From IMG/VR virus record IMGVR_UViG_2698536506_000007: a stretch of DNA of 18,447 nt; one strand, written 5' to 3'. The notes beneath the pieces were generated by a model. The model worked only from the letters and a program-made list of their open reading frames with translations. It ran no database searches and was not told where the DNA came from. This document shows, piece by piece, positions 1,307 to 14,382 of this stretch (the first letter of the stretch is position 1; the number at the start of each line of letters is the position of its first letter). Position numbers and translations under genes: made by a program. This stretch comes from a virus (lineage: Duplodnaviria; Heunggongvirae; Uroviricota; Caudoviricetes).

Positions 1307-3772
1307 TTAAAAATCAACCTGACTCGGGATCAGTTTTTGCCAGATAGCTGAAACTTGTTTTGCCTGGTGGCGGGCATCATCCAGTGCATTATGGCGTACG
1401 CCTTCGAACGGAATAGCTGTTCTGGCATCGAAGTCTATGGCTTTTCCCAGATCAACGATTGTGCGCACATCGCGATCGTTGCAGTAACGCCACGGGCAGG
1501 GGATACCCTGCCGTTCATATGAACGGCGTAAAATCACGTTGTCGAAGCTGGCTCCATTTCCCCAGACCCGAACAAAAAATTCACCGGAGTTTTCGTCGAT
1601 AAATTCCCGCAATTGCAATAGTGCATCATCTAACGGAATTTGATTTACCAATATTGCAGATCTGGCCTCGCTGGACTGCGCCAGCCACCATTCGATTACG
1701 TCACCATCGGGAGTAGCACCTTTGTCCATTGCGTCAACCAGACTGATGACAACATAAAATATCGGTCCGATTTCCCCGGTCTGCGGATCGAAAAACACTG
1801 CAGCAATAACTACGATGGGCGCATTGCTGTTAATTCCCATCGTTTCAAGGTCGATCATCAGATGGTGCCATACCCTGCTGGTGGATGTGATAATGTGATG
1901 ACTGTTCACCGTAATTAAGGGATCTGCCGCCTCGCCAGTTTTACTATCGCTGGTGTGATGCTGATCGTTACCAGCATTCTCATTGTTCGGATGTTCAGCG
2001 CCTTCCATTTCCTCCGGATCATTTTCCTGAGTTTCAGCCTGATTCTCTTCATCGAATGTTTCCTGGTATGTTGCGTCGCCCATCACCGCGCCACAGTCAG
2101 GACAGTTGCCGCCGCCGGTCTGACCGCAGGTGGTGCAGACTTTTTCCGGTTCTTGTTGCTCTTCTGGTTCAGGCTGTTTCGTTTCTGGCTCGTTTTGTAA
2201 CGCATTTGGGCTGTTCTGTTCCGCTTTCTGGTCGTTTTGTTCCGATTCGGGCAGGTTCTGGTTCACAGAATCGCGGGTTTCAATCCCCTTAACCCATTTC
2301 GGATCATTCGGGTCGCTAATTCCGTCAACGAACTCACCGCGATGGACTGCCAGTATTTTGTCGGCATCAGGCTGGTTGATATTGGCTGCCTGCATAATTT
2401 TGTTTACTTCGTCAGCGGTAACTTTTACCTGTTTAACTGGATCTACCTGTTCCTGAGTATCCAGCGATTGCGTGTCCTGGTGATGTTCAGTTGTATCCGG
2501 CTCCATTGCTTCGGCCGTTGCCTGTTCATCTGCCATTGCGTCAGACGGTTGTGATTTTTCCTCATTATTTTTTTCTTCTTCTGTTTCGCGTTCAGCAGCC
2601 AGTTCGCGGTTAACTTCTTCCAGGATATCTTTTTCCGGTGTATGTCGTGCAGCAGTGAGAGTTTCCTTGCTGGGGTTCTCGTGATCAGTCTCCGTTAAGT
2701 GGGCGTTGATATACCCCTGAAGGCGTCCCGGGTAGTGATAAAACTCAGGGTGAGCGCTCCGGATAAGTGCAAAAATAGCGGCGCGGGAATAATCCAGAAT
2801 ACCCGGGGTTGCGCGAAGTGCTGCGGACCATTCTTTGAACGGACTTTCTCTTTTCAGGACGATTTCTTTTGCGCGACGATAAACGCTGCCCGGAATTTCA
2901 TAAATATTAAAATCCATCGGAAGTGTGGCTGCTGCAATCTCCACATCCAGCGTATCGAAGGTGTGTACTAAATTCGGATTGCGATCGGTTTTGTTCCCGC
3001 CACCGGCATTAGCACCGGAAGCCGTGCGGGTGATACGCGAAACACGATTTCCTTTCATCCACTCTTTTGTCAGCAGACCGCGATCGGTGTAGTCGGCGTC
3101 CAGGTATGCTTCGATAAAAGAGGTTATCAGTCCCAGGTCCGAATTTACGGGGGCGGGGAAAACTTTGTCAGTGTCTCGCACCAGTTTGTGGAGATCGCGA
3201 ATCTCCAGCGGTTCGAGTTGCGCTGCTTTATTTGAGATAGCCAGCGCGGTAACGGCGGGAAGTTTTTCATCCTGTGCGTTATGTAATGCGCGCAGTTCGT
3301 CCCGCGAAACGTGTGTGATCGGTTTTTCGCTGCCGTGCTGTGCCAGCCATCGAACAGGCAGAATCTGACCTGAAACCGGCAGGAGCATGTTCTCCTCAAT
3401 CTCAGTCATGTCTTCGCCGTTGACGTTGGTATTGTCAGTGTTGGCTGGTTTGTCCTGCGCAGAGGGTGAGGGCGCGATAAATACCATTGTGATGCCATCT
3501 TCCCCGCCTTTTTCGTAACGGTTACAGAATTCAGTATCAAACACGCCTTCAGGTGGAAGGTCATTCACAACGGGTAAATGGACGCGGACGGGTTTTTTAA
3601 AGTCGTCTTCATCATAATCGTTGTCATCCATTGCGGTAATGCAGCGGGAGATGGCAACAGATAATTTTTTTGCTGTAGTCCAGTAAAAACCACCTTTAAT
3701 TCCAAGGCGTTTTCTGACTTTGTCATTTTTTGCTTCACAATATAATGCAAATTCTTCTTTATCAGTGCTCAT
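1307..3772 (-). CDS. Large early-left nuclease (821 aa) of the kind annotated as exodeoxyribonuclease VIII; C-terminal DEDDh/DnaQ-like 3'-5' exonuclease domain, central acidic low-complexity region with a CxxC..CxxC zinc ribbon
   Basis: Long ORF with SD (GAGG 8 nt upstream of the ATG at 3770-3772). C-terminal motifs MIDLETMG (Exo I, D-x-E), GNGASFDNVIL (Exo II) and HNALDDARH (Exo III, H-x4-D). CTTCGQTGGGNCPDCG zinc ribbon. Position equals recE/exo in lambdoid prophages. Confidence 0.8.
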   Translation of the reverse strand: MSTDKEEFALYCEAKNDKVRKRLGIKGGFYWTTAKKLSVAISRCITAMDDNDYDEDDFKKPVRVHLPVVNDLPPEGVFDTEFCNRYEKGGEDGITMVFIAPSPSAQDKPANTDNTNVNGEDMTEIEENMLLPVSGQILPVRWLAQHGSEKPITHVSRDELRALHNAQDEKLPAVTALAISNKAAQLEPLEIRDLHKLVRDTDKVFPAPVNSDLGLITSFIEAYLDADYTDRGLLTKEWMKGNRVSRITRTASGANAGGGNKTDRNPNLVHTFDTLDVEIAAATLPMDFNIYEIPGSVYRRAKEIVLKRESPFKEWSAALRATPGILDYSRAAIFALIRSAHPEFYHYPGRLQGYINAHLTETDHENPSKETLTAARHTPEKDILEEVNRELAAERETEEEKNNEEKSQPSDAMADEQATAEAMEPDTTEHHQDTQSLDTQEQVDPVKQVKVTADEVNKIMQAANINQPDADKILAVHRGEFVDGISDPNDPKWVKGIETRDSVNQNLPESEQNDQKAEQNSPNALQNEPETKQPEPEEQQEPEKVCTTCGQTGGGNCPDCGAVMGDATYQETFDEENQAETQENDPEEMEGAEHPNNENAGNDQHHTSDSKTGEAADPLITVNSHHIITSTSRVWHHLMIDLETMGINSNAPIVVIAAVFFDPQTGEIGPIFYVVISLVDAMDKGATPDGDVIEWWLAQSSEARSAILVNQIPLDDALLQLREFIDENSGEFFVRVWGNGASFDNVILRRSYERQGIPCPWRYCNDRDVRTIVDLGKAIDFDARTAIPFEGVRHNALDDARHQAKQVSAIWQKLIPSQVDF

Positions 3773-8980: not shown

Positions 8981-9197
8981 TCAATATGTCGAGACGAAGG
9001 TATGTTTCGGCGCGCAGCCAGGCTCTGTAATCCGGGAGCATTTCGGGGCTGTTACACCAGCGGTTTGTTGCTGCAACATTTAATACATGAGCCTGATAAA
9101 GGCTTTTCAAAAAATACATGTCGAACCTCCTCTGGTTCTGTTGATTGGGAACCACAGATTATATCCGGAGGAAGGTTCGGCACCAGATGAGGTAGCC

Positions 9198-10307
9198 ATG
9201 CGTGATTACGCAAAAGTTTCTCCGCGATTCTGGCTGGGAGAAACGGGGAGAGAACTTAGAAAGGCGGGTGCAGAAGCGCAAGTTGTTGCTTTTTACCTGA
9301 TGACATCCCCTCACGCAAATATGCTGGGTTTGTATTACCTGCCAGTTTTATACCTTGCTCATGAAACCGGGCTTGGTCTGGAAGGGGCTTCAAAGGGGCT
9401 TAAAAGGGCTGTTGAAGCTGGTTTTTGTAGCTATGACCATGATGCCGAGATGGTCTGGGTCCATGAAATGGCAGCCTGGCAGGTTGGGGAAACGTTGAAG
9501 CCAGGCGATAACCGTTGTGCAGGTGTCAGGAATGAGTATGCATCATTACCTGAAAACGCTTTTCTGTCAGCGTTTTACGACAGATATAAAACGGATTTCC
9601 ATCTTGATGTGAGGCGGAATAATAGCCGAAATTCGGTAAGGGGCTTCGAAGGGGCTTTTAAGGGGCTTCGAAGCCAAGAACAGGAGCAGGAGAAAGAACA
9701 GGAACAGGACAAAAACACTATGGTTCATGGCGAAAAAAACACCATGAACCAGGCAGGGGATGTTCAGACCGTAAATTCTGGTCAGCCAGCAGGCACGACA
9801 CCGGAAGCCGATTCGGCGTATGCGCTGAAAGCCGATTCGGGCGCTGTGCAGCAGGCGATGACCGCAGGGTCGGAGCAATCACACCAACTGCAGCAGCCTG
9901 AAGCCGATTCCGCCATTCAGCGGGAAGCCGATCGGGTAGTCCCGGAAAACACCGGGCGGCCTGTGGGACGAGTGGATTATCCGGATGTGTTCGAACAGGT
10001 CTGGCGGGAATACCCGTTGCGTGCCGGGGCAAACCCGAAGAAATCCGCATTCAGTGCCTGGAAGGCCAGATTGCGCGAGGGGGTGCCACCAGAGACCATG
10101 CTGGATGGTGTGAGGCGTTACGCGAGATACCTGGCGGCGACCGGGAAAGCGGGAACGGAATTTGTTCAGCGAGCGACGACGTTTTTTGGACCGGACCGGA
10201 ATTTTGAAAACCCCTGGTTGCTCCCGGTAAGCGGCACGAACAACCAGCGTTGTGTGAATCACATTTCTGAACCGGACACCGAAATTCCACCAGGGTTCAG
10301 GGGATAA
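9198..10307 (+). CDS. Putative replication initiator/replisome organiser (about 369 aa; alternative upstream start at 9087)
   Basis: Position after cro/ydaT; contains two iteron clusters in its coding sequence (ori-within-gene arrangement as in lambda O); C-terminal ...FEQVWREYPLRAGANPKKSAFSAWKARL... resembles phage replication proteins; preferred ATG at 9198 has GAGG 5 nt upstream. Confidence 0.65.
   Translation: MRDYAKVSPRFWLGETGRELRKAGAEAQVVAFYLMTSPHANMLGLYYLPVLYLAHETGLGLEGASKGLKRAVEAGFCSYDHDAEMVWVHEMAAWQVGETLKPGDNRCAGVRNEYASLPENAFLSAFYDRYKTDFHLDVRRNNSRNSVRGFEGAFKGLRSQEQEQEKEQEQDKNTMVHGEKNTMNQAGDVQTVNSGQPAGTTPEADSAYALKADSGAVQQAMTAGSEQSHQLQQPEADSAIQREADRVVPENTGRPVGRVDYPDVFEQVWREYPLRAGANPKKSAFSAWKARLREGVPPETMLDGVRRYARYLAATGKAGTEFVQRATTFFGPDRNFENPWLLPVSGTNNQRCVNHISEPDTEIPPGFRG
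9384..9411. repeat. Iteron cluster 1: three GGGGCTT-type direct repeats at 11-bp spacing
   Basis: GGGGCTTcaaaGGGGCTTaaaaGGGCTG (9384-9411). Confidence 0.5.
9649..9677. repeat. Iteron cluster 2: three GGGGCTT direct repeats at 11-bp spacing, followed by a purine-rich tract and a 10-bp inverted repeat
   Basis: GGGGCTTcgaaGGGGCTTttaaGGGGCTT (9649-9677); downstream CAGGAGCAGGAGAAAGAACAGGAACAGGACAAAAACAC and TGGTTCATGG..CCATGAACCA (about 9718-9750). Confidence 0.5.
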
Positions 10308-13198: not shown

Positions 13199-13561
13199 AT
13201 GGCGACTTTGACCAAAGAAGAACGGTTTACCAAAGAGCAGTTAATAGCCCACGCAGAGGAGACTATTGAATCACAGAGACTGTGCATACCCGGCACAATC
13301 GACCATGACCTCATTCGCGCATATAAGATGGATATTGCTGTTCTGGAAATTGCACTGCAATTGCTGGCAGCAGCGCCAGTTGGTAAATTTTATGAATACA
13401 AACCAGTGGGGTATCAGCGTCTGGTCGACGAGTTAACCATGCAGGTAAAGCGGTTAGCCTGGCAACTGAGGAAAGCGAAGCCGGACTGCAAACTGCCGGA
13501 TAAGGCGATGGACTACCTGGAGCGAAACGGACTGAAAAGCGAGGAGGATGTTTTACGATGA
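13199..13561 (+). CDS. Hypothetical protein (120 aa)
   Basis: ORF in the nin-like chain. Confidence 0.6.
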
Positions 13562-13641
13562 CCTGGCCTGAAGCATTCACAACGGCAGGAATTGCGATGG
13601 CGGTGGCGCTGGTGGTGTATTCGATTTGCCGCTGGGGATAA
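13558..13641 (+). CDS. Possible small hydrophobic peptide (27 aa, [27 protein letters not shown])
   Basis: ATGA overlap with the upstream stop; single predicted TM segment; directly followed by a strong terminator. Confidence 0.3.
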
Positions 13642-13651
13642 TAAATAAAAA

Positions 13652-13677
13652 CCCCGGACTATCAATCCGGGGTTTTT
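13652..13677 (+). terminator. Rho-independent terminator ending the rightward nin-like gene chain
   Basis: CCCCGGA-ctatcaa-TCCGGGG followed by TTTTT. Confidence 0.7.
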
Positions 13678-13832
13678 GAAGGAAGCAAAAAGAAACGACT
13701 ACCATCGCTACCAGTTGCTACCACGACAAGTTAACGTATCACAGGCGAGCGCATTGCGCCGTTCTGACGCGCATAAGGTAGATCAGATTTCAGGAGCTGG
13801 CAATAAAAAGTTGGTGGAAAGTCTGATGCAGA

Positions 13833-13860
13833 TGTGAAAAGACAGCCCCGAAAACGGGGC
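13833..13860 (-). terminator. Candidate terminator for the leftward coiled-coil gene
   Basis: Hairpin GCCCCG-aaaa-CGGGGC (13845-13860) immediately 3' of the gene; minus-strand downstream sequence TGTCTTTTCAC. Confidence 0.5.
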
Positions 13861-13868
13861 CGGATTTA

Positions 13869-14201
13869 CTAAGCACCAATAATTCTGAAGATGTAATCCT
13901 TGAAGATGAGAGCCAGAGCGGCAGCAACAATAAACCACTGGAGTCGATCAAACTTGGTTTCCAGTTTGTCCAGACGCTTATCAACAGATATTAGCTGGTT
14001 TTGTAAAGAATTAAAGCGACTATCGACCTCACGACGCAAGTTATCAACGTTGTCCTGCGAAGAATTGAATCGACTATCAATTTCACGACGGAGGTTATCA
14101 ACGTTTTCTTGTGTTGCCAGGTGTTGCATGTTCTGCTGGCGATGCAACAAAGCATTCAGCACATCGCTGGTGCTGAACTCAATTTTTTTGTCGTCACTCA
14201 T
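13869..14201 (-). CDS. Coiled-coil protein with C-terminal transmembrane anchor and an internal 18-aa tandem repeat (110 aa)
   Basis: Repeat NVDNLRREIDSRFNSSQD / NVDNLRREVDSRFNSLQN; C-terminal WFIVAAALALIF hydrophobic helix; opposite strand to its neighbours; flanked by terminators. Confidence 0.7.
   Translation of the reverse strand: MSDDKKIEFSTSDVLNALLHRQQNMQHLATQENVDNLRREIDSRFNSSQDNVDNLRREVDSRFNSLQNQLISVDKRLDKLETKFDRLQWFIVAAALALIFKDYIFRIIGA
14007..14114. repeat. Two tandem 54-bp repeats (in-frame duplication inside the coiled-coil gene)
   Basis: Unit starts CGACTATCGACCTCACGACG (14007) and CGACTATCAATTTCACGACG (14061). Confidence 0.7.
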
Positions 14202-14382
14202 GCTGGCCTCCTGTATAGGGAATCGTGGTACAGGAAAAACCTGTTAAGTAAATAGTAAAGTTAATCGCTTCACTCATCAAGAGAGGAAGCACAGAAGCGG
14301 TTGACGACAACAGAAATCAGAGACAATATTGCCGCTCGCCAGCCTGAACAACTGGCACCTGCTGCGCCAGCAGAGAAAACCA

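Follow-up and report, generated by a model that had tools for sequence, protein, structure and literature searches.

A counter-oriented prophage gene predicted to encode a tail-anchored, DUF1640/CCDC90-like coiled-coil protein whose stalk varies in length by heptad and hendecad steps

We analysed an 18,447-nucleotide stretch of DNA from a Caudoviricetes virus (IMG/VR record IMGVR_UViG_2698536506_000007), hereafter the window, and in particular a single leftward gene within it that encodes a protein of 110 residues (Table 1). To the left of this gene runs a rightward chain made up of an Ead/Ea22-like open reading frame (ORF), DUF7167, a 120-residue ORF and a 27-residue hydrophobic ORF, and the chain is closed by a strong terminator hairpin. 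To the right of the gene lie a small ORF and then DUF968, RusA and Q. The arrangement agrees with a first-pass annotation made from the sequence alone, which had placed a counter-oriented gene with its own downstream hairpin between a terminated nin-like chain and a DUF968-rusA-Q block. The window is nearly identical to prophages of Escherichia coli C5 and RM11911, which are Qin/Rac-like lambdoid elements with dicB, YdaS/YdaT-type regulators, DUF1627, DUF4406, Ead/Ea22, DUF968, RusA and Q.

Table 1. Coordinates in the window of the leftward gene, the parts of its product, and the signals around it.
Feature	Position	Strand	Remarks
Hairpin ending the rightward nin/ead-like chain	13646-13678	both-strand T-run	dG (folding free energy) -18.7 kcal/mol, z -3.99, 14 pairs
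Predicted terminator hairpin of the leftward gene	13843-13862	minus	dG -16.2, z -3.75
ORF, 110 residues (head, neck, stalk and anchor)	13869-14201	minus	ATG start; stop codon 13869-13871
Predicted C-terminal anchor, residues 89-110 (WFIVAAALALIFKDYIFRIIGA)	13872-13937	minus	hydropathy and conservation
Repeat unit 2 (QDNVDNLRREVDSRFNSL)	14004-14057	minus	43/54 nucleotides and 15/18 residues shared with unit 1
Repeat unit 1 (QENVDNLRREIDSRFNSS), first 18 stalk residues	14058-14111	minus	in-frame tandem unit
Neck motif, H27-L-A-T-Q-E32	14106-14123	minus	aligned to ATKxD, the beta-layer motif of DUF1640 proteins
N-terminal head, residues 1-26 (MSDDKKIEFSTSDVLNALLHRQQNMQ)	14124-14201	minus	alignment A3; conserved from E. 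coli to Vibrio
Shine-Dalgarno sequence, GGAGG	14207-14211	minus	5 nucleotides before the ATG; read from the sequence
Inverted repeat in the 5' untranslated region (ACAGGTTTTTCCTGT)	14230-14244	minus	invariant in 8 loci
Candidate sigma-70 promoter	14252-14280	minus	TTGATG (14275-14280), 17-nucleotide spacer, TACTAT (14252-14257)

Is the leftward ORF a genuine gene? Compared with the 87%-identical allele of E. coli C8, its frame has a ratio of non-synonymous to synonymous substitution rates (dN/dS) of 0.056; the antisense frames are interrupted by stops or have ratios from 0.12 to 12, and none is under comparable constraint. Moreover, a search of 5.8 billion proteins returned 77 relatives, 70-173 residues long, from E. 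coli, Salmonella, Photorhabdus (many), Erwinia, Serratia symbiotica and Vibrio. Because of the low dN/dS and of these 77 homologues in Enterobacterales and Vibrio, we conclude that the ORF is a genuine gene. One could instead take it for a chance, non-coding ORF in a repetitive intergenic region, given that the curated families offer no above-threshold match and that the opposite strand holds an ORF of 115 residues as well. This explanation is effectively refuted by the conservation pattern: in addition to the constraint on the coding frame, the head and the anchor of the protein are conserved between genera, and a Shine-Dalgarno sequence, a promoter block and a terminator are all present. The homologues are small, complete proteins throughout and not fragments of a larger structural gene, and no known housekeeping phage function is assigned to the protein.

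The protein divides into an N-terminal head, a short neck, a stalk and a C-terminal anchor. An AlphaFold2 (AF2) model of the monomer consists of one long helix from residue 11 to residue 109 (predicted local distance difference test score, pLDDT, of 76), with hydrophobic residues at a periodicity of about 3.6 residues, in line with the coiled-coil character ascribed to the protein at first sight; the model is uninformative on the neck and on the oligomeric state. Five neck residues, H27, A29, T30, Q31 and E32, are invariant in 38 aligned family sequences. The C-terminus is hydrophobic (WFIVAAALALIF, then KDYIFRIIGA), with a Kyte-Doolittle mean of 1.93 over the 19-residue segment FIVAAALALIFKDYIFRII and of 2.73 over a 12-residue core. 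A conserved KFDRLQ precedes it, and the F and K of an FK[DE] motif are invariant across the family. We therefore agree with the earlier description of this segment as a predicted transmembrane anchor. Since the protein lacks a signal peptide, has basic residues before the anchor and has few residues after it, it is probably tail-anchored, which would leave its head and stalk in the cytoplasm.

The stalk begins with two 18-residue units in tandem and in frame, as the first-pass annotation had reported. That annotation had gone on to call them a perfect or near-identical 54-bp duplication and to see in them a recent change of repeat number, and on both counts our results differ. The two copies are 80% identical in nucleotide sequence, with codon differences that comprise five synonymous and three non-synonymous changes, and a Tandem Repeats Finder run did not report the pair. 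Furthermore, equivalent units of different alleles are closer to one another than are the two units within the gene: between alleles, the last units differ at 4-8 nucleotides and the first units at 6-9, compared with 11 differences between units 1 and 2 of the window gene. Therefore, the duplication predates the divergence of the alleles, and the repeat units are old.

Copy number does vary among related prophages. The allele of E. coli 04-00955 is exactly 54 nucleotides shorter and has one copy, the window gene has two, and a 129-residue allele found on 43 contigs (P0001) has three. Because the single unit of 04-00955 is intermediate, with 7-9 differences to every other unit, we suggest that it is a chimera produced by unequal recombination. 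Each 18-residue unit can be written as 7+11, with its hydrophobic residues V, L, I and F spaced 3, 4, 4 and 7. The 18-residue repeat is a module of the stalk, whose length is set by how many copies are present (1, 2 or 3 in E. coli).

All complete members of the family have a head (KKIEFSTSDVLNALLHRGQNMQ), a neck with invariant H, A, T, Q and E, and a C-terminal KFDRLQW-FIVAAALALIF-K[DE]YIF anchor. Head and anchor are conserved, and the region from neck to anchor consists of repeats with periods of 7, 11, 14 or 18 residues. The 18-residue units are found in the subgroup of the window gene; units of 11 residues include RRETKEGIDTI, EQETERRFNKL and NQRFEAMDKAF, and the 7-residue unit RFESIDK reaches up to about eight copies. 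Measured from neck to anchor, the stalks have 22 different lengths, the shortest of 31 and the longest of 115 residues, and each of the 22 equals 31+7a+11b. Among the possible increments from 1 to 59, 29 can be expressed as 7a+11b, and all 18 increments observed in this range belong to those 29 (naive hypergeometric P = 5e-8, calculated on values that are not phylogenetically independent). This fit follows in part from the repeat periods themselves, and none of the other step pairs that we tried accounts for all 22 lengths. Stalk length differs even between orthologues of one locus. We conclude that the stalk changes length solely by heptads and hendecads, and that such steps leave the register of the coiled coil intact.

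To what larger group does the family belong? PF07798 (DUF1640/CCDC90) includes MCUR1, CCDC90B, yeast Put6 and Put7, and many prokaryotic proteins, and the link to it runs through the anchor. When 1.84 billion representative proteins were searched exhaustively with a profile, some were found to share the KFDRLQWF...LLFK[DE] anchor and to carry a different head, MGQVAFDTL..AGL..EQAKAI..SHEVADVATKxD. For the linking proteins P0086, P0124 and P0206, PF07798 is the top Pfam match, at 21-26 bits and below the cutoff of 33.5. Their close relatives are annotated with PF07798 and occur in several copies per genome in Arsenophonus, Sodalis, Symbiopectobacterium, Hamiltonella and Regiella; these endosymbiont proteins include plasmid copies and one that is labelled 'Phage protein' at source. 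The alignment of the endosymbiont set (A4) has a constant head, a variable count of 11-residue repeats (AEIADVRKDLS) and three alternative anchors, and one of the three, found in Arsenophonus, Sodalis and Symbiopectobacterium, is of the window protein's type. Such a pattern is indicative of a modular shuffling of anchors. When the alignment of our family (A3) was compared with A4 by hhalign, the two matched along 81 columns that run from ATQE/ATKxD to the C-terminus (probability 99.1%, E 4.8e-19). The window-type head pattern, ...LLHxxQHxAT[RQ]E, recurs in metagenomic relatives.

The neck can be compared with a structural element that has been described in the same superfamily. Hartmann et al. 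(2016) give the beta-layer consensus as [aliphatic]-A-T-K-[polar]-[DE], locate the beta-layer at the start of the stalk in DUF1640 membrane proteins of prokaryotes and mitochondria, and report that beta-layer proteins of known structure are homotrimers, with one exception, and that beta-layers prefer hydrophobic residues at the first two positions (PMC4786415). The stretch of repeat unit 2 that is equivalent to the neck reads N-S-S, and because of this preference for hydrophobic residues we expect unit 2 to continue the helix and not to form a second beta-layer. In a search of the Protein Data Bank (PDB) with the family profile, the best match to a solved structure was 6h9l (E 4.9e-4, or 0.037 over the aligned stretch), with the stalk alone covered. 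The HlATqE neck was aligned to REATKED of 6h9l and the stalk to its REATKEDIEALRK repeats. We take 6h9l to be the archaeal representative solved by Adlakha et al. in 2019, a study that reportedly describes a trimeric head-neck-stalk-anchor architecture with several head types. Matches to influenza HA2 in the same search were dismissed as coiled-coil noise. At the level of sequence profiles, the neck, stalk and anchor are homologous to those of bona fide PF07798 proteins, and the head is of a different, shorter type. We accordingly assign the window protein as a divergent, unannotated member of the DUF1640/CCDC90-like head-neck-stalk-anchor class.

The gene is equipped with its own signals. Its predicted terminator has an 8-bp stem with seven G-C pairs, a UUUU loop and a UCUUUUC tail (TCTTTTC in the DNA), and other alleles have two different hairpins just past the stop codon, so that three hairpins occur in three contexts overall. 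Upstream of the start codon, GGAGG is identical in six of eight aligned loci, and the other two, both with 129-residue alleles, carry GGAGC. The candidate promoter hexamers TTGATG and TACTAT are invariant in all eight, even in loci with unrelated sequence farther upstream; the block from the -35 box to the ATG is conserved in the eight loci, and the cassette boundary falls at the -35 box. Because the block from promoter to ATG is kept despite unrelated upstream sequence, and because three hairpins are found in three contexts, the gene can be read as an independently transcribed accessory cassette, or moron. Its orientation against early rightward transcription, together with its own signals, makes expression in the lysogen from its own promoter probable. 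During lytic growth, early rightward transcripts would run antisense to the gene.

Two further observations concern these signals. The 5' untranslated region (14202-14246, minus strand) contains ACAGG-UUUUU-CCUGU and a second ACAGG that overlaps the Shine-Dalgarno sequence, and all three elements are invariant in the eight loci. The CCUGU arm can pair with either ACAGG, and one of the two pairings occludes the Shine-Dalgarno site; the predicted fold pairs the Shine-Dalgarno region with a z of -1.8, which is not significant. These elements may act as a translational switch or serve as the operator for a protein. The hairpin that closes the rightward chain is flanked by an A-run and a T-run and was listed on the minus strand in our scan, and it could stop leftward transcripts too. 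The segment that holds it (13600-13809) matches many E. coli genomes at about 82-97% identity.

The gene is rare, being carried by 6 of 5426 complete E. coli genomes, and DNA and protein searches of a phage collection matched its flanks and found the gene in none of the deposited phage genomes searched. Its slot is constant: in all E. coli prophages examined it is counter-oriented and lies between nin/ead-like genes and a (Rem)-small ORF-DUF968-RusA-Q block. Its own terminator, its insertion between conserved phage genes and its presence/absence polymorphism are the marks of a moron. In E. coli C8 and PapM-36-2 the slot also contains hokD, alongside the gene. The alleles of these two strains (L003 3725-4057 and L004 2996-3328, respectively) have a 1-nucleotide insertion near codon 12, and their annotated start is a GTG that lies two bases downstream; the first 12 residues (MSDDKKIEFSTS) are thereby exchanged for 11 others (MTTKKLSSAPA), and the remainder stays in frame. 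The protein may be able to do without its extreme N-terminus, or else these alleles may be impaired.

Could the gene itself encode a small Hok/type I membrane toxin, or some other membrane-depolarising peptide? Related prophages have hokD in this intergenic slot, and the product of the gene has a hydrophobic C-terminus with charged residues. Nevertheless, we consider a toxin extremely unlikely. Type I toxins are generally under about 60 residues, whereas this protein has 110, with a head and a long, conserved, soluble coiled coil, and its homology is to scaffold-type DUF1640 proteins. Moreover, Rfam finds no family, antisense RNA included, in the window, and C8 and PapM-36-2 carry the gene plus hokD, which is not what a replacement of one by the other would leave.

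Relatives outside E. coli are found in several other settings. In Salmonella, a family member also occurs in a P22-like early-left region. In two Salmonella prophage loci (L024 6001-6671 and L025 6001-6659), the 124-residue member P0058 lies tail-to-tail, with a 4-nucleotide overlap, with a PF07798-like gene whose product has a DUF1640-type head (MAQVYFDTLKFVETLEAAGV...VATKRDL) and a different anchor (PF07798 E 7e-8, 32.9 bits, cutoff 33.5); this slot thus pairs two paralogous membrane coiled-coil proteins. Homologues in Vibrio (P0074 and P0068; L008-L011 and L021-L023) lie just upstream of the ArdC and ArdA antirestriction genes, on the same strand, in surroundings with topoisomerase III and a type IV coupling protein that resemble the leading region of a plasmid or an integrative and conjugative element. 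In Photorhabdus (L005-L007, L027 and L028), three lineages have the family at one fixed place in the chromosome, immediately downstream of icd, and the orthologues at this locus have 7- or 11-residue repeats in differing numbers; three of them are 131, 133 and 135 residues long, and Photorhabdus members overall range from 103 to 155. No partner gene recurs beside the family across the prophage, plasmid and chromosomal contexts examined. The moron slot shared with hokD, the Vibrio leading regions and the P22-like region in Salmonella point to the biology of mobile elements without discriminating between particular roles, such as exclusion, anti-defence, establishment or host modulation.

The same contexts bear on the idea that the protein is XhlA-like, or otherwise a holin-associated lysis accessory protein that is membrane-active at lysis. 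The first-pass annotation had likened its layout to that of XhlA-type proteins and had claimed no homology. The likeness of architecture, a coiled coil with a C-terminal hydrophobic segment, stands; homology is unsupported, with just weak PHROG matches to two 'hemolysin' families (E 0.036 and 0.062), and XhlA is absent both among the Pfam matches listed for the protein and among the top 25 families of the 38 members. Moreover, the gene lies upstream of Q, outside the lysis cassette and counter-oriented to the early and late operons, and the relatives in plasmid leading regions and at the Photorhabdus chromosomal locus have no lysis genes nearby. We regard a lysis function as very unlikely.

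What, then, does the gene encode? In our judgement it is probably an autonomous moron of a Qin/Rac-like prophage whose product is a trimeric, tail-anchored scaffold of the inner membrane. The protein would be a homotrimer, as the resemblance of its neck to a beta-layer leads us to infer, with the N-terminus in the cytoplasm and the C-terminus in the inner membrane. An alpha-helix rises about 0.15 nm per residue. With this rise, the 56-residue stalk would place the head some 8 nm away from the membrane, an 18-residue unit would contribute about 2.7 nm, and the E. coli alleles with 1, 2 and 3 units would span about 5.6, 8.3 and 11 nm. By analogy, the head would be presented at a fixed distance from the membrane and would bind a partner from the host or from a mobile element. 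We propose such a scaffold or tether role because of the analogy with MCUR1, a described scaffold factor (PMC7279490).

Several results weigh against this interpretation. In the Pfam search with the window protein, PF07798 is absent among the matches listed (best 25 of 40, E<=10), and it is also missing from the 25 Pfam families with the most frequent matches to the 38 family members; the single-sequence matches listed from Pfam, NCBIfam and PADLOC are sub-threshold coiled-coil matches. Coiled-coil sequence inflates profile scores, although the match of the anchor is nonetheless specific, and an hhalign comparison of the heads alone, family versus CCDC90-type, gave a probability of 1%. The neck, L-A-T-Q-E-N, agrees with the beta-layer consensus at four of six positions (Q for K; N/S for D/E), the helix of the AF2 monomer runs unbroken and featureless through the neck, and a Foldseek search of the PDB with this model gave no match. 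The strongly hydrophobic core of the anchor is just 12 residues long and is followed by a K-D pair within the segment, and the unweighted Hessa sum over 19 residues is unfavourable, at +4.5 kcal/mol. The candidate promoter matches the consensus at 8 of 12 positions where the scan rule is 9 of 12, and hence the scan did not list it. Finally, the stable chromosomal locus in Photorhabdus means that the family is not strictly cargo of mobile elements.

Some apparent relationships were set aside. Sub-threshold matches to YwqH-like, DUF16, TelA, LmuB, JetC and phasin models in Pfam, PHROG, NCBIfam and PADLOC were treated as matches of composition. The notion that the head is a truncated CCDC90-type head is unsupported, the head-only profile comparison being negative. 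NF048001 ('GTA head formation protein, RCAP_rcc01685 family') has a sub-threshold similarity to the stalk and anchor of the window protein and of P0048 and P0030 (E 8e-6 to 5e-3, 17-26 bits, cutoff 50), which could reflect either a remote relationship or an effect of composition and is not relied on here.

The scaffold interpretation can be refined into a more specific one, in which the protein is a conflict factor expressed in the lysogen, for superinfection exclusion, abortive infection or anti-defence, and diversifying selection acts on the length of the stalk, since the head has to meet its target at a set distance from the membrane. The gene has its moron slot in common with hokD, it is rare and polymorphic for presence and absence, its Vibrio homologues lie beside ArdC/ArdA in the leading regions of conjugative elements, and its DUF1640 relatives are multi-copy in Arsenophonus, Sodalis and Hamiltonella, with some on plasmids and the one 'Phage protein'. 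Stalk length also evolves rapidly, even among orthologues at a single locus, but tandem repeats alter length fast even in the absence of selection. Moreover, the PADLOC defence models give no significant match, a topology that faces the cytoplasm is unlike that of classical exclusion proteins, which act at the periplasmic face, and a conserved partner gene was not found in the contexts examined. On balance, we think that a conflict role is possible but rather unlikely. More doubtful again is the proposal that the stalk is a tunable molecular ruler whose 7-, 11- and 18-residue steps are selected so that the head can reach a cytoplasmic target at a particular distance from the inner membrane, in an element-borne exclusion, anti-defence or establishment factor.

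Why should so small a family be of interest? In the literature searched, we found no function for the prokaryotic relatives of MCUR1 and CCDC90B, and the bacterial papers mention DUF1640 just as an annotation. The family offers a compact and genetically tractable example in E. coli prophages, with natural alleles that differ by 18-residue stalk units. It also illustrates how a 'hypothetical' protein without a Pfam domain can be placed in a known superfamily by way of intermediates that share its anchor. Since all stalk lengths equal a minimum plus heptads and hendecads, the family is a natural case in which register-preserving insertions and deletions alone survive in a membrane-anchored coiled coil, and this suggests that it matters how head and anchor are oriented or spaced relative to each other. 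If the protein is a conflict or establishment factor, the series of stalk lengths is a ready-made structure-function experiment; if it is not, the gene adds one more small accessory membrane protein to those of prophages. Were the ruler proposal true, it would provide the first function for the prokaryotic DUF1640/MCUR1-like superfamily.

The window holds other features that are separate from the leftward gene. The 27-residue hydrophobic ORF of the rightward chain (13558-13641, plus strand) has an ATG that overlaps the stop codon of the 120-residue ORF (ATGA), ends before the terminator at 13646-13678 and has no RefSeq annotation at the equivalent position in E. coli C5; it may be a translationally coupled small membrane protein. 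The region downstream of Q often holds late-operon cargo, and past Q in the window (16882-18447, plus strand) there are a PemK/MazF-like toxin ORF (159 residues as listed) and a helix-turn-helix protein of the AraC family. An IS21-family element truncates the adjacent holin gene in E. coli C5. A 406-residue ORF (9087-10307), whose counterpart in C5 is annotated as a DNA-binding protein, contains clusters of 11-bp direct repeats (AAGGGGCTTAA / AAGGGGCTTCG) at 9382-9408 and 9638-9717, together with an 18-bp repeat, and these repeats may be the iterons of a replication origin. A 21/42-bp tandem repeat in 2-3 copies, with 69-80% matches, is found at 2174-2260 within a leftward ORF of 821 residues (1307-3772).

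How does the gene compare with known systems? XhlA of the PBSX prophage (PF10779) is likewise small and encoded by a prophage, and it too has a coiled coil at the N-terminus and a hydrophobic helix at the C-terminus, but the window gene lies away from holin and endolysin genes and outside the late operon, and the PHROG E-values are just 0.04-0.06. ElaB, YqjD and YgaM (DUF883) are tail-anchored, ribosome-associated inner-membrane proteins of E. coli, and their genes are chromosomal stationary-phase genes. They resemble the window protein in their size of about 100 residues, their helical cytoplasmic part and their single C-terminal transmembrane anchor; however, DUF883 is absent among the Pfam matches listed, and its members are not known to have the neck motif or a polymorphism of repeat length. 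With the morons of Qin (hokD and relBE, between nin and Q), the gene shares the organisation of an independent, counter-oriented unit that has its own terminator and is polymorphic for presence and absence, but its cargo is predicted to be a structural coiled-coil membrane protein instead of a toxin-antitoxin system. In 6h9l, an 'Uncharacterized protein' of 139 residues with three chains, the neck and stalk can be aligned, although the match is weak, limited to the stalk and made in coiled-coil sequence.

The closest comparison is with the DUF1640/CCDC90 proteins themselves. In both, a coiled-coil stalk opens with an A-T-x-x neck motif and leads to a C-terminal anchor, and the PF07798 relatives have an identical KFDRLQWF...FK[DE] anchor and a variable number of stalk repeats. 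The window protein differs in its head, which is about 26 residues long compared with about 40 in the CCDC90 type and has no detectable similarity to it, and in its neck, which reads L-A-T-Q-E-N/S in place of [aliphatic]-A-T-K-[polar]-[DE]. It differs also in its setting, which is that of an accessory gene of a prophage and not that of a mitochondrial scaffold.

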